In this document: piece after piece, positions 51,177 through 62,153 of the stretch
How positions within the stretch are numbered: position 1 is the stretch's first letter
Layout: each line of letters begins with the position of its first letter
Source of the DNA: Alphaproteobacteria bacterium
Lineage (GTDB): Bacteria; Pseudomonadota; Alphaproteobacteria; UBA828
Direction: 5' to 3'
Length of the DNA stretch: 64,000 nt
Assembly (NCBI GenBank): GCA_963422645.2
Contig: CAXXVO010000004.1
Span: forward strand, 192,001 to 256,000
Position numbers and translations under genes: made by a program
The notes under the pieces: generated by a model
Told to the model about the DNA's origin: nothing
The model's input: only the letters and a program-made list of their open reading frames with translations
Database searches by the model: none

Positions 51177-52100
51177 ATGAGCGCCCCGCCCGGCACCAAG
51201 CCGGTCCTGATCCTGATGGCGGACGACGATCCCGAGGATTGCCTGCTCACCAAGAAGACATTGCAGAAGGCGCGGCTCGGCAACGAGCTGCGCTTCGTGC
51301 AGGATGGCCAGGAGCTGCTGGATTACCTCGGGCGGAGCGGCAAGTTCTCCGGTTCTGCTTCCTCGCCGCGCCCGGACCTGATCCTGCTCGACCTCAACAT
51401 GCCCAACATGGCGGGGCTCGACTCGCTCTGGGAGATCAACCTCAAGCCGGCGCTGAGAAAGATACCGATCGTCATTCTCACGGCCTCCGAGGCCAGCCTG
51501 GATATCTCCGACAGCTACAATCTCGGCGCCTACGCCTATCTCGTGAAGCCCGTGACCCTCGCCAAGCTGCACGAGGCCGTGCTGCGGCTGAAGAGCTGCA
51601 GCTACGAGCTAGCGGTGCCTGCGGGCCCGGGCGACGCGGTGCGGCCTGCGGTCATCGTCATGGCGGACGACGACCCGGAGCATTGTCTGCAGGCGACCAA
51701 GACGCTCCAGGCTGCGGGCCTCGGCAACGCGCTCACCTATGTGACCAATGGCGCCGCGCTGTTGAACCAATTGCACGGACGGCATGTCCGCGGCGACGGC
51801 ACGCCCGCACCGCGGCCGGATCTCGTCATTCTCGACCCCGGCCTGCAACAGACGGAAGGACGCCATGCGCTCGCCGAGATCGCCGACACGCCGGCGCTCC
51901 GCGACCTGCCGGTGATCCTGCTGGGAGGGTCCAAGGGCGACCGTGCCGGCCTGCCCTGGGCGGGGACGGTGGAGCCGGTCTTCATCGACCAGCCGATCGA
52001 TTTCATCGCGTTCGCAGGTGCCGTCGCGGCCTTCCCGTCGCTTGCGCTGCGACTCGTGACCAAAGCCGAGGGGCCGGCCGGCACAGCCGGCGCCGCCTAG
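51177..52100 (+). CDS. Tandem receiver-domain response regulator
   Basis: REC1 ADDD/LLDLNMP/LT.S/KP is intact; REC2 ADDD/ILDPG lacks the conserved T and K. Confidence 0.85.
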   Translation: MSAPPGTKPVLILMADDDPEDCLLTKKTLQKARLGNELRFVQDGQELLDYLGRSGKFSGSASSPRPDLILLDLNMPNMAGLDSLWEINLKPALRKIPIVILTASEASLDISDSYNLGAYAYLVKPVTLAKLHEAVLRLKSCSYELAVPAGPGDAVRPAVIVMADDDPEHCLQATKTLQAAGLGNALTYVTNGAALLNQLHGRHVRGDGTPAPRPDLVILDPGLQQTEGRHALAEIADTPALRDLPVILLGGSKGDRAGLPWAGTVEPVFIDQPIDFIAFAGAVAAFPSLALRLVTKAEGPAGTAGAA

Positions 52101-52117
52101 ACGCCGGGAGAGGGAGG

Positions 52118-52570
52118 ATGGCGAGAGCCGAGACAAGCGAGCGCACCGTCCTCCTCATGGCAGACGACGACCCTGCCGACTGCCTGCTTACCGAGAAGGC
52201 GCTGCGCCGGGCGGAGGTCACCTGCCCGCTCTATGTCGTCCACGACGGCGCCGAGTTGCTGGACTATCTCAAACGCCGCGGCGACTACGCCGACCCGGAA
52301 GCGGCCCCCCGGCCGAGCCTTATCCTGCTCGACCTCAACATGCCGAAGATCAACGGGACCGAGGTGCTGGAGCAGCTGCGCGACGAGCCGGAGCTCCGCC
52401 ACATCCCTGTGGTGGTGCTCACGACCTCCGACGAGGAGCGGGATATAGCGGCGAGCTACGCGCTCGGCGCCAACGCCTACCTGGTCAAGCCCTCGGCCTT
52501 CGACGAGATGGTCTCGGTGGCGCAGATCGTAAAGGCCCACTGGCTGGAGACGGTGCGCCTACCGCCTTGA
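52118..52570 (+). CDS. Single-domain response regulator (Rcp1-like)
   Basis: GGGAGG RBS then MARAETSERTVLLMADDD, LLDLNMPKING, LTTS, SY.LGANAYLVKP. Confidence 0.92.
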   Translation: MARAETSERTVLLMADDDPADCLLTEKALRRAEVTCPLYVVHDGAELLDYLKRRGDYADPEAAPRPSLILLDLNMPKINGTEVLEQLRDEPELRHIPVVVLTTSDEERDIAASYALGANAYLVKPSAFDEMVSVAQIVKAHWLETVRLPP

Positions 52571-52782
52571 GCGATCGCCGCCCTCGTCCAGTTCCTCTTC
52601 AAGTTCGGCGAGGCGTTCGAGTATCCGGCGAACGTAGCCGGCTTCGATCATGTGGCCCCACCAGCCATCGCTGAAGCGTTGGCCCCGCAGGACGCAGGAG
52701 AGCGTGGCCCGTACCTGCGGCAGGGTTGCGGCCGTGATCGCCTCCTCGCTCTCGATCAGTTTCTTCGCGTCTTCAGGCACAT
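52559..52782 (-). pseudogene. DUF6508-like gene, 5'-truncated at the element end
   Basis: LRGQRFSDGWWG.MIE.G.VRRILERL resembles DUF6508; host sequence stops at the TG end at 52783. Confidence 0.55.
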
Positions 52783-53524
52783 TGTAGCCGGCCGAAAGTC
52801 TTTGCGAATCGCGGCCGGAAGTCTTTGCGAATGGCCTGGAAAATCGGCTGGTTTTCGGGGCTGAACCGGGCTGGAAAAACCGGCCTGTGCATGGGCCATG
52901 AAGGAGCGCTGCGCGGGGGGTTCAGGGCCCGTGCACGGGCGGTGCGTGAGGGTTTCAGGCGCGGTCGGGACCGGGGCGGGCGCCGGGGCGGCACGGGCGT
53001 TCGAGTTCGGCCTTCCACCATTCGGGGTCTTCGACGGCGCGTTCTGCGGCGTCGTATCCGTCGTGACCGGTCCATCTTCCGGGGTCGGCGTCGGCGTACC
53101 ATCGGCCTGCGCCGCGGTGTCGTTCGAGGGCGTCGTCGATGCGGGCGATCCCGTCCGCCGGGCGTCCCCGGCAGAAGCGCTCGAAGAAGGCGTTGAGGCG
53201 GCATCGGGGGCAGCGTCCGCAGGGCTCTGCCGCGACGGTGCATCGCCAGGTGAGCGCCTCCAGCCCGGGCGGGAGCAGGGCCTGGAGCATGAAGCGCCCG
53301 GCGACGGGTCCGAAGGGGTCGTCCCGCGACGGCGGCCACTGCGCGCCGTCCTCCCAGCCGGGGAAGAAGGGGAGTTCCATGGGGACGGCGGTGCGCGCGC
53401 GGTAGGCCGGATGCCAGTACATGCGGTGCATGTCGTCGGCGGTGTCCCACGAGGTGATGCCGAGCATCACCCGGTCGGCGCGGTGCCGTTCGGCCTCGTC
53501 GGCGTGGGTTGCGTACCGGTCGAG
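52783..53524 (+). repeat. Left arm of ~740-bp inverted repeat
   Basis: Reverse complement of 59428-60171 with scattered substitutions and a small indel; contains the terminal sites and the 3' two-thirds of the QueC-like gene. Confidence 0.95.
52789..52832 (+). promoter_or_regulatory. Tandem putative transposase-binding sites
   Basis: CGGCCGAAAGTCTTTGCGAAT (52789-52809) and CGGCCGGAAGTCTTTGCGAAT (52812-52832), 23-bp period, 6 bp inside the terminus; mirrored at about 60122-60165. Confidence 0.7.
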
Positions 53525-53839
53525 GCCCCAGGGACCGAAGGTGGGGTCGCAGACGCCCTCCCACCCTCTCCCGTCCCTGATCGGGTATCCGGCGCCGGCG
53601 TCGAGGTCGAGGCGCAGGGCGTCGCGCGACACGTGGCGCACGGGCCGGACGTTGCGGGAGAGCCAGTCTGCGACGGCCTCGCTTGCGGCCTGCCCGCGGG
53701 CGATGCGCTCCGGCAGCTCGCGGGCGGGTTCGCGGTAGCAGGAGAGGACGACCTCGTCTTCGGTCTCGCGCAGGACGAGGAGGGCGAGGGCGGTGCTGTC
53801 GATGCCGCCGCCTGCGGGGACGAGGGTGCGTCTTGGCAT
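52955..53839 (-). CDS. QueC-like PP-loop ATP pyrophosphatase-family protein
   Basis: N-terminal TLVPAGGGIDSTA (SGGxDS variant), central ADRVMLG, C-terminal TWRC-x6-CGRCPRC zinc cluster as in QueC. Confidence 0.72.
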   Translation of the reverse strand: MPRRTLVPAGGGIDSTALALLVLRETEDEVVLSCYREPARELPERIARGQAASEAVADWLSRNVRPVRHVSRDALRLDLDAGAGYPIRDGRGWEGVCDPTFGPWGLDRYATHADEAERHRADRVMLGITSWDTADDMHRMYWHPAYRARTAVPMELPFFPGWEDGAQWPPSRDDPFGPVAGRFMLQALLPPGLEALTWRCTVAAEPCGRCPRCRLNAFFERFCRGRPADGIARIDDALERHRGAGRWYADADPGRWTGHDGYDAAERAVEDPEWWKAELERPCRPGARPGPDRA

Positions 53840-53840
53840 C

Positions 53841-54527
53841 CTAGCCCCACTCGATGACGATATAGCCGGCGGAGACCGGGGAGGGCACGGTGAGCTGGGT
53901 GTGTCGGCTGACGCCGCTTGCGCCGGCGGGGGCGGAGGAGGTTCCGTCTGCGCCGTCTGCGCCGTTGCGTCCGTAGACCGCTCTCTTGCCGCCCTTGCCG
54001 CCGCGCGCCGTGCCGCCGAGGACGGCGGTGTTGCTGCCGTCGCCGCCGTCCCTCAATCGCGCTCCGTCCACGCCGTTGTCTCCCACGGTCAAGCTGTAGG
54101 AGGTGCCCGGCGAGACCGCGATCTCGAAGTAGATGAAGCCGCCGTCGCCGCCCCGCAACTGCACGCGCACGCGGGTCACGCCCGCGGGCGCGCGCCAGTA
54201 CCCGGAGCCGGGCGTGGTGAAGGTCTTGCGCCCGCGCGGCGTGGGCCGGGGCGCCGGCTCGGGCGCGGGACGCGGCGGCGCCGTGCGCTCGCTGAGGTTG
54301 GCCAGCCGCGTGCGCTCGGCCGCGCTGAACACCTCGCCCCGCATCTGGCGGAAGGGGTGCAGGCCGGAGCCGTCGAGGGTGGCGACGCCGCCCGGATCGC
54401 CGAAGGCGTCGATCATGGCGTTGATTGTGTCGGCCATGGCCTTGATGGCGGCGCGGGCGTGGGCGGGCGAATCGCTGCCCTGGTCGAGGTGGGTGGTGTC
54501 GATCTTCCGGGTGGGCCATGCGGTCAT
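53841..54527 (-). CDS. Putative phage tail fibre protein with glycine-rich C-terminal domain
   Basis: Follows the tail-tip gene; MTAWPT..IDTTHLD.GSDSP..AR..IK, GVATLDGSG, TFTTPGS..W..PAGVT.V.V, AVSPG.SY.LTVG, G...IEW. Confidence 0.6.
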   Translation of the reverse strand: MTAWPTRKIDTTHLDQGSDSPAHARAAIKAMADTINAMIDAFGDPGGVATLDGSGLHPFRQMRGEVFSAAERTRLANLSERTAPPRPAPEPAPRPTPRGRKTFTTPGSGYWRAPAGVTRVRVQLRGGDGGFIYFEIAVSPGTSYSLTVGDNGVDGARLRDGGDGSNTAVLGGTARGGKGGKRAVYGRNGADGADGTSSAPAGASGVSRHTQLTVPSPVSAGYIVIEWG

Positions 54528-54548
54528 GGAGCTTCCTTTCGCGATCGC

Positions 54549-57500
54549 TCAGCCCGCCGGCGCGGCGATATGGGCGCGGGCGAGGCCGAAGCAGAGGTAT
54601 CTGACGGTGGGGAGTTGCCCGCGCTCCCAGGTCCAGGTCCACTCGACCTGGACCATGCGTCCTGCAATCCCGTCCCCGGCGGCGTAGCCGGTCCAGGCGG
54701 CGGAGGCGAGGTCGTCTCGGAAGTCGGCGGCGCGCACGCGCACCGTCGGCTGGACGGCGGCGTCGGAGTCCCAGGCGAGCACCGAGACGACGCCGTCCTG
54801 GCCGAGGTCTGCCGGCATGGAGGTGTAGACGGTGGGCTCGGCCGCCCAGGCCGCGCCGGGGAGCGCCCATCCGGTCCAGGCGTCCCAGGTGGTGAGGCCG
54901 CGCCAGGCGTAGTCGGCGGCGCCGGTGGCGGGATCGGCCCAGGAGAAGTCGAGGGCCGCGCCGGCGAGCGTGCCGCGGGTCCATCCCTCGGCGCTGGGGC
55001 AGGCCCAGAACAGGCTCTCGCCCCGGCGCTGGGCGCCGAGGCGCGCGGTGACGCGGCTCTCGGGGCCGTAGCGCCCGCCGGTGTCGAGGGCGCGGAAGGA
55101 GAAGAGCCAGTCGCCGGCGGCGGGCTCGACGGCCTCCCAGGGGCTTGCGGTGAGCCATCCGCGGTGGATCGCGCGCAGCTCTTCCCACGGCGTGCCCGGG
55201 TCTGCGGGATACGCCGGCGCGGGTCCGTATCTGATGCGGACGCCGAGCAGGTCGGGGTCGGCCGGCTCGGCCCAGCGGAAGCGCCGGGTTCCGTCGCCGA
55301 GGCGCTCGACGTGGGCCTCGCCGACGGCGCCGGGGGGCGTGCGCAGGCCGCGGATCGTATATGCGATGCGGTGCCGCGGGCCGCCGCCGCGGGGCAGGAC
55401 GACGATCTCGATCCAGCCCTCGGGCGGGCTGGTCCAGCGCGCCTCCGTGTCGCCGCCGTCGAGGCTGGCGACGGTGCGCATGGGCCGGCGCTCCCACGAC
55501 GCGCGGACCTCGGCGCCGCGCCAGTCGCCGGCGACGGTGAGGGAGAGCGCGATCTCGACGAGGAAGGCGGCGCCGACGCGGATCAGGGTCTCGGTGACGG
55601 TGGCGTGCAGGACCCGCGGCAGATTGCGCCGTATCTGCGGCAGATCGACCGAGAGGTCGGCGGTGGCGGCAGCGTAGTAGGCGCCGAGCTCGTCGACGGC
55701 CTCGAGGCGCACCCGGTCCCCGGATCTGGGGCTGACGCCCACGACCTTCACCCTCGCCGGCCCGGCGCCTGCGGGATAGAGGCGCCAGAGCGTGTCGACG
55801 GGCTCGCCGATTCCGTCCTCCGGCGCGGGTGTCGTCCACACGCGGGCGGTTTCGGCGCCGTTCGCGCGCGCGCCGGAGCCGGGCGGGCCGGCATGGGCGC
55901 GCACGGTCTCGAGCGCCCCTTCGGGCCGGCGCAGCATCAGCCAGTCGGTCCCCGCCGCGCCGGCGATCCGCACGGCGCGGTCGAGGGTGCATCCGTCGTC
56001 GTGCAGGGCGACGAGCCGGCCCGTGCGGCCCCCGTCGAGCAGGCCGTGGCTGAGGTGGACCACGTCGCCGCGCCTGATGGAGAGGCCTTCCGGCCCCGTC
56101 TCCCAGGCGATCCGCCGCCGGTGGTAGCGCTGGCGCGCGGCCTGGAGGTTGCACTCCAGGGCGGCCTGTTCGCGCGTCGTGACCCCGGCGAGCGTGAGCG
56201 TGGCGGTGGACGCGGGCGGGTATTCCGCGTCCGGCACGGTGCGGCGCACGGTGTTCCACTGCCAGTCGAGATCGGGGTCGATATAGCGACAGGCGATCTC
56301 GTCCGCGCCGCGGCCTGCGGCCCAGTCCACCTCGAGGGAGCCTGCGACGATGTTGCCGGGGGTTATCATGGCCGTCGCCGGCCTGTCGGCGGCGTCCCAC
56401 ACGACGCCGAGCCGGCCCGACTGCCAGGAGGGCGCGGCGCGGCCGCAGCGGGCGATCGTCTCGATCACGCGGGCGTGGCCGATTGCGCGGTCCAGCACCA
56501 GGTCGCAGCGCAGCGGCGGGTCGTGGGCCGCGATCCAGTCGTGCCAGGCGCCGAGGCCGGCGAGGTCGATGCGGGCGTCGGGCAGGCCGACCCCGGCCAC
56601 GACGCGGCCGTGCACGCGGATGCCGCGCAGGTAGAGCAGCATGAGGGCGGCGGGGTTGGAGGAGTACGCCGCGGGCGCGGCGGACCAGGCGCGCCCGTTC
56701 CAGCGGGGCGCCTTCTGGCGCACCAGCGCGCTCAGCCGGTCGACGGGGCCGGAGAACTGGCCCGAGGCGCGGATGCTCAGGCCCAGCCGCCGCTGGCCGG
56801 TGTAGTCGGTCGCGTCCCTCTGGTAGCTCCTGAGGGCCGCCCAGGTCAGATCGTCGCCCGAGCGGTCGTCGTCCGCCGGCGGGGAGGTGCGGCGCACGCG
56901 GACCTCCCAGCTGCCGTCGCCCGCGAGATCCCAGGCCGCGCCCCAGCGGAATGGCGCGGTCTCGTCGTGGCCCAGCGTCTCCGCGCCGAGCCGCGTCCAG
57001 GCGCCGCCGCCGGCGCGGCGGGCCTCGACGACGATATCGACCTCGCGCCGCTCGGGCCTGCCCTGCCCGTCGAAACCGTAGAGCGCGCCGGCGATGTCCA
57101 CGCCGACCCGGTAGGTGTCGTCGGCGGTGGTGCGCGTCACCCACCCGTCGTCCGCCCCGAGGTCGTCGGCGGCCACCGGCGCGCCGCCGTCCTCGGGCCA
57201 GGCGAGCGCGCCGCCGGCCTCGGTGTCGACGTTGCCGGCGATGCCGTGGACCTCGCCGCCCGGGCGCCAGTCGATCAGGCCGCGGGCGTCGGCCGGCGGC
57301 GCGAGCGTCAGGTGCTCGTAGTCCGTGATCGGGGTGTCGCCGATGCGGAGATCGGCCTCGGCGACCTCGATCGCGCCGAGGCCGAAGTGGAAGATCTGGC
57401 GCAGGATGTGGTCCGGCAGGGCGTCGGCGCCGGAGACGTACTCGGTGTAGGGCCGGGAGCCGAGGTCGGGGAAGATGCGGTGCTCGCCGAGGACCAGCAG

Positions 57501-58075
57501 GAAGGGCTGGTAGGGGCGCTGCGGGTTCCGCCCGCCCGAGATCGAGTAGACCGGGTCGGGCCGGGCGAGGGAGGCCCGGGTGACCTCGGGGATCGCGGGC
57601 GGCACGAGCGCATTCACCAGCAGGGTGCCGCCCACCATGATCAGGGAGCTTCCGAGCGCGGTGGACTGGGCCGCCGTCAGGCCGAGGCCGAGGGCGTCCG
57701 AGATGAAGCCGCCGACCGCTGGCCCGGCCCAGACCGCTGAGCCGGGATCAGGCGGAGCGTGACGATATCGCCGAGGCGGAGCGGGGTCGCGGGCCACGCC
57801 GCGCGCGGGACGGGGGTCCCGTTCAGCTCGACGGCGACCAGGGCGGGGTCGAGCCCGAGCCTGCGCGCCTCGGCCCCGGCGAGGCCGGCGAGGGTCTCGC
57901 CGGGGCGGATCGAGACCCGCCGGGTCTCGCGCCCCTCCGAGGTCAGCGGGTGCGGCCAGGCGTCGAGGGTCACGCCCGCGTGCGCGCGGTCGCGCGATGC
58001 AGGGGCCGTGACCGGGCCGTTCACGGGCGGTGCAAGGGTCGTGCGCGGCCCCTGCACGGGCGGTGAATCGCTCAT
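54549..58075 (-). pseudogene. Phage tail-tip/host-specificity protein (ubiquitin-like I domain plus J-like), frameshifted
   Basis: N-terminal MoaD-like segment (RPGETLA...VELNG.PVPR..W....LRLGDIVTLR) from the ATG at 58075; frame change near 57740; then Y.ISGGRN..RPYQP..LVLGEHRIFPD, IRASGQFSG, SSNPA, CRYIDP...WQ, L.GVT, GDVV.LSH. Confidence 0.8.
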
Positions 58076-58521
58076 ATCCAGATCGTCCACCGATAGATCC
58101 CCGTGGCTTCCAGGCCGCGCGCCTCGAGGCCGCGCAGCGGGTGCAGGACGGTGCCGAGCCCGGCCTGGCAGTGCAGCACGCTCGGCTCGCCGGCGGGCGC
58201 GCACCAGAGCCCGATATGGTGGCCCGCGAGGCGGCGGCGTCCGGCCATGCGCATCAGCACCCCGTCGCCCTCTTCCGGCGTCTCGCCGGCAGCCAGCGTC
58301 CGGGCGTGCTCGCAGGCCAGTGCCCGGACCTGACGGTCGCGGCCGCGCACGCCAGCAGCGCGCGGCGGCGGCTGCCAGGCGCGGCCGAACTCGGCGGCCA
58401 GCACGCAGACCACCAGGTCGACGCAATCGTGGCGGCCCTCCACGTGAGGGCGGCCGAGATAGCGCTCCGTCCAGTGGGTCATGCCAGCCATGCGCGCCGC
58501 GCAGGAGGAATGGCGACGCAT
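58072..58521 (-). CDS. NlpC/P60 phage tail assembly protein (lambda K-like)
   Basis: W.ERYLG.P...G..DC..LV, EGD.VLM, HIGLW, VLHC; overlapping start/stop coupling with both neighbours; alternative start at 58482. Confidence 0.82.
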   Translation of the reverse strand: MRRHSSCAARMAGMTHWTERYLGRPHVEGRHDCVDLVVCVLAAEFGRAWQPPPRAAGVRGRDRQVRALACEHARTLAAGETPEEGDGVLMRMAGRRRLAGHHIGLWCAPAGEPSVLHCQAGLGTVLHPLRGLEARGLEATGIYRWTIWI

Positions 58522-59430
58522 CAGAACAGGCCCGGGCTGGTCTGGGGGTCGTGACGCATGAGCACGGCCGGTCTGTCCAGGAGCGGATCGAAGCCCAGGC
58601 GCACGGTGACGCGCTCCTGGTCGACGCGGACGTGGAGCACGTCCAGCGTCACCTCCCACTCGATGCTGCGGGTCGCACGCACGCACTGCATCACGCGCAC
58701 CGTGGCGCCCGCGCCGCCGCCGGCCGCCTCGATCCACTGGGTGAGGTCGCGGCCGACGTTGTCGATCCAGAGCTCCGCCGCCGGCTGGCGGCCCTCCACG
58801 TCGTCGGCCAGCCGCGCGCCGAATCGGAGCGCCGCGTAGCGCCGCCCGTCGATCTCGAGGTCGACGGCGTCGTTCACGACGCGCAGCGCGTCGACCAGCA
58901 GCGGGTGGCGGATCTCCAGGCAGGCCACGACGACGTCCCGGGGCGAGGCGGCCCGCTGCGCGAGCGCGTAGCGCATGGCCGGGGTGACGATCCTCTCGGG
59001 CGTCGCCGAAACCTCGTCCGACGCCGCGCCGGGGCCGCCTGCGCCCACCATGCGGAGGCGGAAGGCCCAGGCCCGCCCGTTGCGCAGCCCCGTTACGGTG
59101 TGGCCCGTCGTGCCGGCGCCGCTGCCGGGGATATCGGTCCAGGCGCTCCAGGCGCCCGCGCCCGCCCGGTACTGCACCTGCCAGCCGGCCAGGGTGGCGA
59201 TGCCCGGATCGTCCCAGGAGAGCGCGACCTCGCCGTCGCCGGCGACGGCCGCGAGGCCCGCGGGCGCCGGCAGAACCGGCGGCGTCGCCGAAACCTCGGC
59301 AGACGCCGCGCCGGGGCCGCCCGCGCCCACCATGCGGAGGCGGAAGGCGTGGGCCCGCCCGTTCCGCAGCCCCGTTACGGTGTGGCCCGTCGTGCCGGCG
59401 CCGCTGCCGGGGATATCGGTCCAGGCGCTC
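58521..59430 (-). pseudogene. FN3-repeat/DUF1833 tail protein fusion, 5'-truncated
   Basis: About 1.5 FN3 domains (PAPAGL.A.AGDGEV.LSW...WQVQYR...HTVTGL.NG....FRLR) in frame with LEIRHP...LRVVND..DL...G..Y...F...L.IDNVGR.L..WIE...PGLF; no start, cut at 59430. Confidence 0.78.
58999..59430. repeat. 150-bp near-identical direct repeat, 282-bp period (FN3 duplication)
   Basis: 58999-59148 matches 59281-59430 (GGCGTCGCCGAAACCTCG...GGTCCAGGCGCTC). Confidence 0.93.
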
Positions 59431-59997
59431 GACCGGTACGCAACCCACGCCGACGAGGCCGAGCGCCACCGCGCCGACCGGGTGATGCTCGGCATCACCT
59501 CGTGGGGCACCGCCGACGACATGCACCGCATGTACTGGTATCCCGTCTACCGCGCGCGCACCGCCGTCCCCATGGAACTCCCCTTCTTCCCCGGCTGGGA
59601 GGACGGCGCGCAGTGGCCGCCGTCGCGGGACGACCCCTTCGGACCCGTCGCCGGGCGCTTCATGCTCCAGGCCCTGCTCCCGCCCGGGCTGGAGGCGCTC
59701 ACCTGGCGATGCACCGTCGCGGCAGAGCCCTGCGGACGCTGCCCCCGATGCCGCCTCAACGCCTTCTTCGAGCGCTTCTGCCGGGGACGCCCGGCGGACC
59801 AGGTCGCCCGCATCGACGACGCCCTCGAACGACACCGCGGCGCAGGCCGATGGTACGCCGACGCCGACCCCGGAAGATGGACCGATCACGACGGATACGA
59901 CGCCGCAGAACGCGCCGTCGAAGACCCCGAATGGTGGAAGGCCGAACTCGAACGCCCGTGCCGCCCCGGCGCCCGCCCCGGTCCCGACCGCGCCTGA
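59428..59997 (+). pseudogene. Second, 5'-truncated allele of the QueC-like gene
   Basis: LDRYATHADE...TWRC...CGRCPRC...GPDRA*; lacks the PP-loop; differs from copy 1 (WGT/WDT, YPVY/HPAY, DQVA/DGIA, TDH/TGH). Confidence 0.88.
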
Positions 59998-60171
59998 AAC
60001 CCCCACGCACCGCCCGTGCGCGCGCTCACCGAAACCCCCGCGCAGCGCTCCTTCATGGCCCATGCACAGGCCGGTTTTTCCAGCCCGGTTCAGCCCCGAA
60101 AACCAGCCGATTTTCCAGGCCATTCGCAAAGACTTCCGGCCGCGATTCGCAAAGACTTTCGTCCGGCTACA
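59428..60171 (-). repeat. Right arm of ~740-bp inverted repeat
   Basis: Matches 52783-53524 in reverse complement; ends CCGGCTACA. Confidence 0.95.
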
Positions 60172-60665
60172 CCCTGGATCGGTCGCTCCAGCGCCTCCAG
60201 CATCGCCACGGTCGGCTGCAAACGGGTCTCCGCCGTGGTCGGCAGCAGCACGGGCTCAAGCCCGAGTGCCTGCAGCGTGTTGCGGTAGGCCGGGTAGCCG
60301 GGATTGGCCAGCGCCACCCGGTCGCCCACGTCGAAGGCGGCGAGGAAGGCAAGAATTATTCCGGCCGAGCCCCCGGTCGTGACCACGATGCGTTCGACCG
60401 GTGGAGCGAAGCCGTAGCGCTCGCCGTAGAACGCAGCGGCGATGCGTTCGAGCAGGGGCAGCACGCCGTCGGCCTCGGTGTAGCCAATTTTGTCGCCGGC
60501 CAGGGCCGCCTGCGCGGCATCGAGCACCCGTTGCGGCGCACCTGAGCCGGGCTCTCCGGTCTCCATGTGGAAGACCGGGGCTCCCGTCGCCGCACGCTCG
60601 GTCGCGGCCTTGAGGATTTCCATCGCGAAGAAGGGCGCGACCGCCGCGCGCCGGGATGCCGCCAT
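60172..60665 (-). pseudogene. Class I/II PLP aminotransferase, 3'-truncated by the element end
   Basis: PFFAME, HMETGEP, GYT...G, VTTGGSAG, NPGYPAYRN, QP; homology stops at ...RPIQG where the end begins, before the expected SPxNPTG and PLP lysine. Confidence 0.88.
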
Positions 60666-60674
60666 CGCCGTGCC

Positions 60675-62153
60675 TTAGGGGTTGCCGTCCGCAGCAACAC
60701 CCAATTTGCGGCTGTCGCTTGTGTGGTTGCAGCTCTCCGAATTTGGCGGCAACCCACCCGGGCAGTGGATCGCATTGACCCTTCCGACCGCTGGCAACTG
60801 GACAATCCGATAGCCAAGCTCAGTGAGCGCCGACCGAGCTTCGGCGCCAATTGCTGGCTCGACGTCCAGCTGATCGGACGCGCCGCCCGCATGCACCCTA
60901 GGCACAGCCGACGCTGCGGCGAGCGGCTGATCGCGGTCGAGCAGTTCCAGCAGTACTGTTGCCAGTGCGCTCGGCGCCGCCCTGCCCCCGCTGGCAGCCG
61001 CCGTCAGAAAGACTTGCTGGCTGTTCCGGTCGACCAGCATTGCCGACGCGAGCGGTAGAGCAAGATCAGGCTCCGGCGCAGCCGCGAGAACTATCCCCGT
61101 TTCCGGCGCGACCCGACCCGCGCCGAATGGGCCGTTCATCGTGAGGCCACACGCGACCGCCATGCCCCGCCGGTCGACAACCACGAAACTCGTGGTGGGC
61201 GCGTCGCCGACTGGGGTGGCGAATCCCTCCTTCTCAGCATCAACCAGCAGTTGCAGACGCTTTGCTCCATCGGCCTCGCTGTAGCGGTATTCGGCGTTGG
61301 CCGTGTTCCAGATCGTGGCGGCAACTTCCCCGCCGCTACCCGGTATCATGTGCAGTTCTTTACCGTCGATGGGCAAGAACGCGGTGCCGCGCCAGCGCGC
61401 CTGATAGCCCGCCAAATTCTCTGCCCCGAGCGCCTCGCCTGCTGGGGCGATTGAGTCTTCCAGCAGGCGTGCCGTGCGCCCGGTATAGAAGTCAGTGGCA
61501 CCACTGCGCCGCAGCCGCGAGATCAGCGCGGCGAGATCGCGTTGAACAAAGGTCTCGCCCCGGCCGATCGGCTGGCCATCGCTTCCACCGAAGAGGGCGC
61601 GTGCGGCGGGATCTCGAAATAAGGCTTCGGTCCCGGCCGCGAGATCCTGCGCCAACACTCGCGACGTTGGATGACCATGCCGCGCCAACTGCTCCGCCGC
61701 ACCAAGCGTACGGGACCAGAACAGTCTTCCGAAGCGGGTCTGCAGGGCATCCATGCCGCGCACCGTCCCCGGCACGGCAATCGCTGACCCACCGCCGGCT
61801 GACGCAGTCGCTTGCGCCGGTAGGAAATCGAGGGCCTCGATGGTGTCACCCGACTGATGCGGTCTGTAGACGAGGCATTGGCCGCCACCGCCGAGGCTGG
61901 CTACGGATGGATAGGTCACCGCCAGCACGAAGGTCAGAGCCACCGCGGCGTCGGCCGCTGAGCCCCCTGTCGCCAGCATCTCGCGAGCCGCGATCACGGC
62001 GAGCGCTTCGTCCGCGACGATCGCGCTTGAAAACTTCGCGTCTTCACTGAGCTTGCTGGGAATTGGGGGTCCCCCCGCCTGGCATCCCGCGAGCGCCACA
62101 AGTGTCGCGAACGCGAGGAGGGCTGGCCATTGACGGAGGCGTGCAAGCGGCAT
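60675..62153 (-). CDS. ggt: Gamma-glutamyltransferase-family lipoprotein
   Basis: Lipobox LAGC; GGSAADAAVA, SLGGGG, AVPGTVRG, TTSFVVVD..GMAV, FGAG...TG. Confidence 0.85.
   Translation of the reverse strand: MPLARLRQWPALLAFATLVALAGCQAGGPPIPSKLSEDAKFSSAIVADEALAVIAAREMLATGGSAADAAVALTFVLAVTYPSVASLGGGGQCLVYRPHQSGDTIEALDFLPAQATASAGGGSAIAVPGTVRGMDALQTRFGRLFWSRTLGAAEQLARHGHPTSRVLAQDLAAGTEALFRDPAARALFGGSDGQPIGRGETFVQRDLAALISRLRRSGATDFYTGRTARLLEDSIAPAGEALGAENLAGYQARWRGTAFLPIDGKELHMIPGSGGEVAATIWNTANAEYRYSEADGAKRLQLLVDAEKEGFATPVGDAPTTSFVVVDRRGMAVACGLTMNGPFGAGRVAPETGIVLAAAPEPDLALPLASAMLVDRNSQQVFLTAAASGGRAAPSALATVLLELLDRDQPLAAASAVPRVHAGGASDQLDVEPAIGAEARSALTELGYRIVQLPAVGRVNAIHCPGGLPPNSESCNHTSDSRKLGVAADGNP

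Follow-up and report, generated by a model that had tools for sequence, protein, structure and literature searches.

A QueC-like enzyme gene behind a tail fibre gene at the right end of a Mu-like element: a candidate modifier of a receptor-binding protein

What would an enzyme of the QueC type do as the last gene of a phage tail operon, in a cell in which the other genes of the deazapurine pathway were not found? The question was raised by a 64,000-nucleotide stretch of an alphaproteobacterial genome (contig CAXXVO010000004.1, positions 192,001 to 256,000; hereafter the window), in which an open reading frame (ORF) for a QueC-like protein lies between a putative tail fibre gene and the right end of a Mu-like transposable element. 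A preliminary description of the window had proposed that this ORF encodes a new phage modification function, acting on DNA, on a tail or host protein, or against QueC-based defence. The analysis described here favoured, with a probability of about 0.35, an adenylating, amide-forming enzyme that acts on or for the adjacent receptor-binding fibre.

The following sequence features of that proposal were verified: the 294-residue frame, the PP-loop variant (AGGGIDST at residues 9-16), the cysteine cluster (C200-x6-C207-G-R-C210-P-R-C213), the spacing of 1 bp and the distance of about 170 bp to the terminus. The stop codon of the fibre-like ORF (53841-53843) was separated from the ATG of the QueC-like ORF (53839-53837) by a single nucleotide (nt), and 172 bp lay between the stop codon of the latter and the element terminus at 52783. 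A chance open frame in DNA of 75% G+C does not account for the QueC-like ORF, because a near-identical copy showed the codon-position pattern of a real gene (G+C fractions of 0.76, 0.58 and 0.89 at the first, second and third positions), 35 distant relatives carried its motifs and its fold was predicted with confidence.

Searches with the window protein alone gave little. It matched 0 Pfam families at E ≤ 0.1 and no NCBIfam model at E ≤ 1, PHROG 1550 (“QueC-like”) was reached at E 0.007, and the best phmmer match in the PDB was Bacillus subtilis QueC (E 1.9). When 1.84 billion representatives were scanned exhaustively with HMMER, only 35 relatives were obtained at E ≤ 0.001, 17 of them at ≤ 1e-10; the ten relatives that were looked up were metagenomic singletons. 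No match to the window protein was found by tblastn in 50,697 phage records or 72,556 plasmids, nor to the family member P0016 in the same phage records, and neither the family alignment nor the member P0002 matched viral contigs. The family alignment gave one weak partial match in metagenome contigs and two usable loci (L045 and L046) in genome contigs. The family was carried by two of 48 other genomes of the order, and no full-length member was present among 400 other genomes of the class, where four apparent matches, spanning only profile positions 13-99, were rejected as other PP-loop proteins.

The family alignment comprised 33 members with 24-49% identity to the window protein. The SGGxDS loop, invariant Arg65 and Leu193, Pro157 and Gly245 were kept across them, as were C200, C210 and C213 in at least 90% of the sequences; as judged from these sequences, the survival of the motifs at such identities makes constraint clear at the level of the family. 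The composition of the family was mainly acidic, with a median isoelectric point (pI) of 5.9. Two members, P0020 (454 residues) and P0031 (404 residues), were extended by domains that no Pfam family matched, one of 170 residues at the N-terminus and one of 130 residues at the C-terminus.

The relation to QueC became visible at the level of profiles and structure. The family profile matched two QueC structures in the PDB (2pg3, E 2e-7; 3bl5, E 2e-5), followed by GMP synthase, TilS, Cap9 and LarE. An AlphaFold2 model of the window protein made with the family alignment (predicted local distance difference test, pLDDT, 87.4; predicted template modelling score, pTM, 0.88) was compared with known structures by Foldseek, which placed both QueC structures on top (E 1e-4). 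Re-alignment with VIA-align gave Z scores of 14.7 and 14.0 for QueC, 13.5 for Cap9, 13.2 for ThiI, about 12 for LarE and 11.5-11.6 for QatC and YcfA, the top rows being nearly tied; Z was at least 8 for 248 of the 1000 PDB chains re-aligned, and the chains listed were PP-loop enzymes. Among viral folds (BFVD), the top three were uncharacterised proteins of uncultured marine viruses (E 6e-14 to 5e-11, TM score about 0.6-0.66), and annotated phage QueCs began only at E 2.5e-6, well behind them; the closest ESM-Atlas clusters were also all viral. On the predicted structure, the protein has the PP-loop (adenine nucleotide alpha-hydrolase) fold and belongs to its QueC branch, closest to QueC, Cap9 and ThiI, in agreement with the fold assumed in the preliminary description. 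A helical C-terminal region, at about residues 211-294, is an extra part of the protein.

The window protein is not a canonical QueC. As listed in the main text of a 2026 survey of PF06508 (PMC13329287), the canonical signature consists of SGGxDS, YxQxHxxE, VPxRN, YPDC, Tyr189 and C(x)8CxxCxxC, and mutation of Y35, R99, Y131 or Y189 abolishes QueC function. When the family profile was aligned by hhalign with eight canonical QueCs drawn from genomes of the same class (probability 97.1, E 7.5e-11, 199 columns), only the PP-loop and the Cys4 site corresponded. The latter aligned with the QueC zinc site, with a spacing of x6 instead of x8, and the YxQxHxxE, VPxRN, YPDC and Tyr189 columns faced non-conserved or different family residues, except for a partial line-up of an Arg near VPxRN and an Asp/Asn near YPDC. 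The window protein fell under the Pfam gathering threshold for PF06508, though weak matches to this model were seen for 16 of the 33 family members (best E 1.5e-4). These results, together with the lack of que neighbours, set it apart from a canonical QueC of a que operon.

The gene content of the host pointed in the same direction. Models for QueC, QueD, QueF and QueE (TIGR04508) had no match in the 99.6%-complete host genome, and matched most control genomes; the sole gene of the TGT/DpdA type found was one canonical tgt on another contig. The earlier remark that no queD, queE or dpdA lies in the window therefore holds for searches of the whole genome. QueD was also missing from all four further genomes carrying the family (0 of 5 with the host), in which the tgt genes were far from the prophages. 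Of 40 further class genomes sampled, only 8 had a full-length QueC; one genome in this tally, G088, contributed weak partial matches only. With a Tgt but no detected QueC, QueD, QueE or QueF, the host is presumably a salvager of queuine or preQ.

The QueC-like gene was compared in five contexts: the window and four foreign ones, all prophage-like. In L046 it lay 14 nt past a 1608-residue TipJ with a fibre-like extension and was the last phage gene; in L045, 13 nt past an ORF with a glycine-rich C-terminal domain; in G047, it followed a gene for a 422-residue fibre-like protein and was itself followed by lysis genes. A putative receptor-binding tail gene was thus directly upstream in four of the five contexts, which favours a tie between the QueC-like enzyme and a receptor-binding protein. 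The neighbours across the five contexts were tail, lysis or host genes.

The fibre gene of the window encodes a helical, conserved N-terminal part, joined by a Pro-rich linker to a TNF-like plus glycine-rich domain, the centre of which is hypervariable. A paralogue matched the Pfam glycine-rich domain PF21722 at E 2.7e-9, better than the window fibre itself (Table 1). In 13 relatives, 57-94% identical and mostly from the host genome, the N-terminal part and the C-terminal end were common and the glycine-rich centre was strongly variable. The best PDB match of a model of the fibre (pLDDT 69, moderate) was the fibre of cyanophage Pam3 (7ypx, E 4.5e-5), followed by the tail tip of mycobacteriophage Bxb1 and the glycine-rich domain of ALK. 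In the passages cited here, the Pam3 fibre is described as an N-terminal helical domain with TNF-like and glycine-rich receptor-binding domains, and its chaperone is encoded by the next gene (PMC9608196). Between the fibre gene and the terminus of the window element no chaperone-like gene other than the QueC-like ORF was found.

At four loci of the host genome, tandem fibre duplicates were separated by a 100-nt remnant of the 5' end of the QueC-like gene, indicating that fibre and enzyme were duplicated as a unit. The fibre paralogues were 53-100% identical, and the enzyme showed 95-100% nucleotide identity.

We therefore favour the fibre as the target, because a receptor-binding gene recurs beside the enzyme gene, the gene occupies the slot of a fibre chaperone, the two genes were duplicated as a cassette, and a precedent exists in Cap9 and QatC, which, according to the main text of the survey, ligate a carboxylate to the N-terminus of a protein encoded by an adjacent gene (PMC13329287). 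The product would be a divergent, phage-specific PP-loop ATP-pyrophosphatase of the QueC branch, with the ATP loop and the Cys4 site kept. As in the rest of the superfamily, ATP would adenylate a carboxyl or carbonyl oxygen, and an amine would then displace the adenylate to give an amide or amidine. Motif loss and host gene content suggest that the substrate would differ from 7-carboxy-7-deazaguanine (CDG). Its gene is translationally coupled to the fibre gene and closes the late tail operon next to the right end of the Mu-like prophage; the enzyme would mature or modify a conserved part of the fibre covalently and at the expense of ATP, in the slot of a fibre chaperone. A more specific version, in which a QueC-derived enzyme installs an amide-type modification or cross-link on the fibre from a non-deazapurine carboxylate, replaces the chaperone and is inherited as a fibre-plus-enzyme cassette, is speculative, and we consider it unlikely as a whole.

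Several results weigh against a fibre target. In the fourth foreign context (G029), the QueC-like gene lay downstream of the tape measure, after a gene for a 300-residue protein of unrecognised type. The upstream proteins of the five contexts were mutually non-homologous except for TipJ, and no common target motif was seen in them. Among the host copies, the variable block of the enzyme at residues 76-85 did not co-vary with the fibre variant. Late co-expression with tail genes would also fit a DNA modifier of the Mom kind. Selection on the host copies was not strong: the median ratio of non-synonymous to synonymous substitution rates (dN/dS) was 0.48, moderately below 1, as computed from the 60 pairs (of 66) in which dS exceeded 0.02, in a set of 12 intact in-register copies that left out one indel-bearing intact copy and three broken ones. 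Lastly, QatC lacks the canonical QueC motifs and still uses CDG, as stated in the main text of the survey (PMC13329287), and motif loss alone therefore proves little about the substrate.

This last point bears on the alternative that the protein is a true 7-deazaguanine enzyme, be it a QueC, a protein deazaguanylase like Cap9 and QatC, or a counter-measure to such defence. QueC is the nearest solved fold and the nearest profile match, the Cys4 site is of the QueC kind, and the weak Pfam matches were accompanied by weak matches of the generic “QueC” model of PADLOC to 8 of the 33 members (best E 8.5e-5); QatC, again as reported in the main text of PMC13329287, shows that CDG use can outlast the motifs. 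Against this, PADLOC gave 0 matches for the window protein itself, CD-NTase, Cap10 and QatABD neighbours were absent from the contexts examined, and the protein remained below the Pfam threshold. A CDG substrate is unlikely above all because the que genes are absent from the hosts, an argument stronger than that from the motifs. CDG should be unavailable there, and preQ0 synthesis, protein deazaguanylation and interference with QueC-based defence are therefore unlikely too; action against such defence, one of the options first suggested, lost ground in particular because QueD was found in none of the five host genomes. Taken as a whole, a deazaguanine function seems very improbable to us. With the enzyme placed in cells without the deazapurine pathway, its substrate is probably new.

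The position of the gene has been compared with that of mom, which we take to be the last gene before the right end in Mu. A late DNA modifier of this kind would adenylate a base carbonyl or a nucleotide precursor to yield an amino or amidino derivative that protects against restriction. The QueC-like gene, part of a late operon, is indeed followed by no further gene before the right end of a Mu-like element whose two-ended copies mostly carry 5-bp target duplications, so the positional analogy drawn in the preliminary description is fair; the position at an element end in itself says nothing about function. The fold also matched ThiI, MnmA, TilS, GMP synthase and YcfA, which act on tRNA bases or nucleotides, and a related right end carried a 2-oxoglutarate (2OG)-Fe(II) oxygenase in the same slot. 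However, no DpdA-like gene or other DNA-handling partner was found in the five contexts, no nucleic-acid-binding domain was recognised in scans of the protein or the family, and the consistent neighbour was a receptor-binding gene instead of replication or packaging genes; the acidity of the family is weak evidence against a nucleic-acid substrate. A DNA modifier is accordingly an outside chance in our estimate.

The related right end belonged to a second type (L015 283-3824, G000:C15:40283-43824, with about 11 similar copies), the first 118 nt of which were 91% identical to those of the first. In it, the oxygenase (PF13640) and a 146-residue ORF replaced the fibre and the QueC-like enzyme, downstream of a TipJ with 45% identity. 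The slot would therefore seem to hold swappable modifying enzymes, without an indication of their target.

At prophage ends, the neighbours of receptor-binding genes are often morons that mask the receptor, and the enzyme may instead serve lysogenic conversion or superinfection exclusion, by modifying a precursor of the surface receptor (e.g. to an amidated or amidinated nucleotide sugar) and so hiding the receptor of the fibre. Of the 16 full-length copies in the host genome (95-100% identity), 13 were intact although every element was defective, a point in favour of this reading; right-end-proximal genes are, however, retained in defective copies for a structural reason, the deletions being internal. 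Expression in the prophage state is doubtful, since the 1-nt spacer cannot accommodate a promoter of the gene's own and the upstream sequence gave no promoter-like site. According to the main text of the survey (PMC13329287), the superfamily also includes PP-loop N-acetyl-sugar amidotransferases such as WbpG, yet the protein matched no sugar amidotransferase of NCBIfam at E up to 1. We regard receptor masking as improbable on balance.

The remaining three full-length copies were frameshifted, all copies lay in deletion derivatives, and the TipJ gene of the window was split. Together with the dN/dS of about 0.48, this would fit a decaying passenger without present function in this genome, a relic beside the transposition end. 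The ratio itself indicates either mild constraint, or past constraint mixed with recent decay. The preliminary description had read synonymous differences between the two window copies as a hint of purifying selection, an argument that has to be dropped: the second copy (59428-60025, +) is truncated at its 5' end, and six of the nine differing codons (188 compared) were non-synonymous and three synonymous. Still, the PP-loop, the Cys4 site and about ten further positions were kept across 33 proteins of 24-49% identity, and the family was present in more complete prophages of other genomes, so that the gene should be functional in the phage lineage even if idle here. A mere passenger is for these reasons quite unlikely.

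Residues 76-85 (window about 53585-53614) formed a surface loop with two sharply distinct alleles among the host copies (10 vs. 6), which were spread independently of the fibre variant and suggest mosaic recombination.

The coordinates of the features are given in Table 1. The TipJ gene of the window was split into the frames 54549-57797 and 57677-58426, and its copy on contig 15 was continuous, with a ThiS/ubiquitin-like N-terminal part (PF02597, weak). An NlpC-like region was also present in the tail genes upstream of the fibre. The 5' end of the DUF1833 gene had been removed by the inverted arm, and its two fn3 domains corresponded to a 150-nt direct repeat (95%; 58999-59148 and 59281-59430).

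Table 1. Features of the window element and related remnants in the host genome.
Feature	Coordinates	Strand	Remarks
QueC-like PP-loop ATP-pyrophosphatase gene	52955..53839	(-)	294 aa; PP-loop 9-16, Cys4 zinc site 200-213
Tail fibre / receptor-binding protein, simplified	53841..54527	(-)	228 aa; PF21722 E 0.002
TipJ / lambda-J-like central tail fibre (host specificity) gene	54549..58253	(-)	NF040662 E 6e-56, phrog_31 E 4e-84
DUF1833 minor tail protein, two fn3 repeats	58521..59427	(-)	PF08875 E 3e-20, PF00041, phrog_396
Right-end terminal non-coding stretch	52783..52954	(-)	terminus starts TGTAG
Inverted partial right end	59428..60171	(+)	QueC-like pseudogene fragment, 3' 570 nt from about codon 106, and 172-bp terminus
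100-nt QueC-like remnants	G000:C8:585270-585369, C10:464016-464115, C7:155192-155291, C8:148343-148442		

The element itself is a derivative of a Mu-like transposable phage. A pattern search of the host genome recovered 41 right ends and 22 left ends; the termini start with TGTAG and bear repeated motifs of 14-24 nt. Of the 17 copies with both ends (facing outward, within 14 kb), 15 had perfect 5-bp target duplications. These two-ended copies, of 0.8-13.9 kb, were internal-deletion derivatives that retained tail genes over a varying length at the right end and a Mu-F-like gene at the left. The host genome yielded no complete prophage of this type. A 1.45-kb repeat considered as a transposase-bearing insertion sequence was rejected, its ORF being Mu-F-like and without a transposase domain.

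Inside the 13.9-kb copy lay two ORFs forming an HTH+rve pair and an ORF for an AAA_22 ATPase. A module with HTH+rve, AAA_22, AAA_25 and DUF3991/Toprim (L014 6532-13064, G000:C8) was present in more than 20 copies of 99-100% identity, in both orientations with respect to the phage ends, and may therefore be an independent transposon; it may represent either the transposition and replication genes of the element or a separate, very active transposon. A search with PF09299 gave no match anywhere, the control genomes included.

The window copy is a 7.4-kb rearranged remnant (52783-60171) without a target duplication, and G+C was 70-76% between its termini vs. 66-68% on the flanks. The “stand-alone terminal phage gene” first described is therefore terminal, as stated, but lies in a rearranged remnant and not in a prophage. 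The second boundary was an inverted 742-bp right-end fragment, and the inverted arms (52783-53524 and 59428-60171) consisted of pieces of 152 nt (95%) and 598 nt (98%). The left flank (52559-52782) was a C-terminal DUF6508 fragment and the right flank (60172-60665) an aminotransferase gene, which is interrupted at 60171. The flanking 5-mer of the window right end recurred at a left end (C6:164266), a tentative hint of recombination between copies; the 49-residue flank at this site had no DUF6508 match.

Within the terminal stretch, two 14-nt direct repeats (52796-52809 and 52819-52832) lay 23 nt apart, and a weak terminator-like hairpin was seen at 52898-52881 (2 found vs. 1.1 expected). An outward-facing promoter-like site (52808-52781, -) spanned the terminus and the flank (1 found, 0.0 expected in shuffled sequences). 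No Rfam family matched in 52000-61000.

The gene belongs to what appears to be a new, rare, phage-borne branch of QueC-like PP-loop enzymes, the substrate of which is probably not a deazapurine. Recent work has shown that the QueC scaffold was adapted to modify proteins in anti-phage defence (Cap9, QatC), and the window gene would be a further branch. To judge by its recurrent position after receptor-binding genes, its candidate roles are an ATP-dependent step in maturing the fibre, in masking the receptor or in protecting DNA; to our knowledge, none of these roles is known for a PP-loop or QueC fold in phages. Among the titles and abstracts listed by a literature search, none described a QueC-like gene beside a prophage tail fibre, and the literature found on the glycine-rich domain consisted of fibre papers only. 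The enzyme is small, soluble and easily expressed, with a candidate partner encoded 1 nt upstream, and the question is directly testable. Separately, deletion derivatives of a transposable phage have multiplied unusually in this host, and they provide a natural series on the ends and genes that survive.

The main text of the PF06508 survey distinguishes clusters of QueC, QatC, Cap9, LarE, PfkB-linked, WbpG-like and GMP synthase proteins, and neither “prophage” nor “tail” occurs in that main text, the supplementary cluster tables and logos lying outside this statement (PMC13329287). With QueC, the window protein shares the PP-loop Rossmann fold, the N-terminal SGGxDS-type loop and the C-terminal Cys4 zinc site containing CxxCxxC; it differs in an identity of only about 16-18%, in inserted loops at about 74-100 and 150-185, in about 80 residues of extra helical C-terminus, in the lack of que-gene neighbours and in hosts without QueD. 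Cap9, of type IV CBASS (cyclic oligonucleotide-based anti-phage signalling systems), and QatC, of QatABCD, belong to the same branch of the fold (Z 13.5 and 11.6) and likewise have an adjoining gene for a possible substrate. QatC has also lost the canonical QueC motifs, and has motifs of its own, e.g. D(x)4R(x)7WxR and C(x)19CGxCxxRR, as far as the main text of the survey describes them (PMC13329287). Unlike both, the window gene has no defence neighbours and is phage-borne in a tail operon, where CDG should be unavailable.

WbpG-type enzymes, LarE, ThiI, GMP synthase and asparagine-synthetase-like proteins have the ATP-pyrophosphatase core and the adenylation chemistry expected here (Z 12-13 for LarE and ThiI), but their family models gave no match and their context differs, and the Cys4 pattern of the window protein is of the QueC type and not of the Fe-S type of LarE and TtuA. 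The likeness to Mu Mom is positional only, as the last late-region gene before the right end; the fold and chemistry are unrelated, and no com-like partner was seen. The likeness to the fibre chaperones, Pam3 gp25 and Mu Tfa, lies in the place of the gene, directly after a glycine-rich fibre gene like that of Pam3 gp24, whereas those chaperones are a small beta-sandwich with a helix and the core of the window protein is the fold of an ATP-dependent enzyme.

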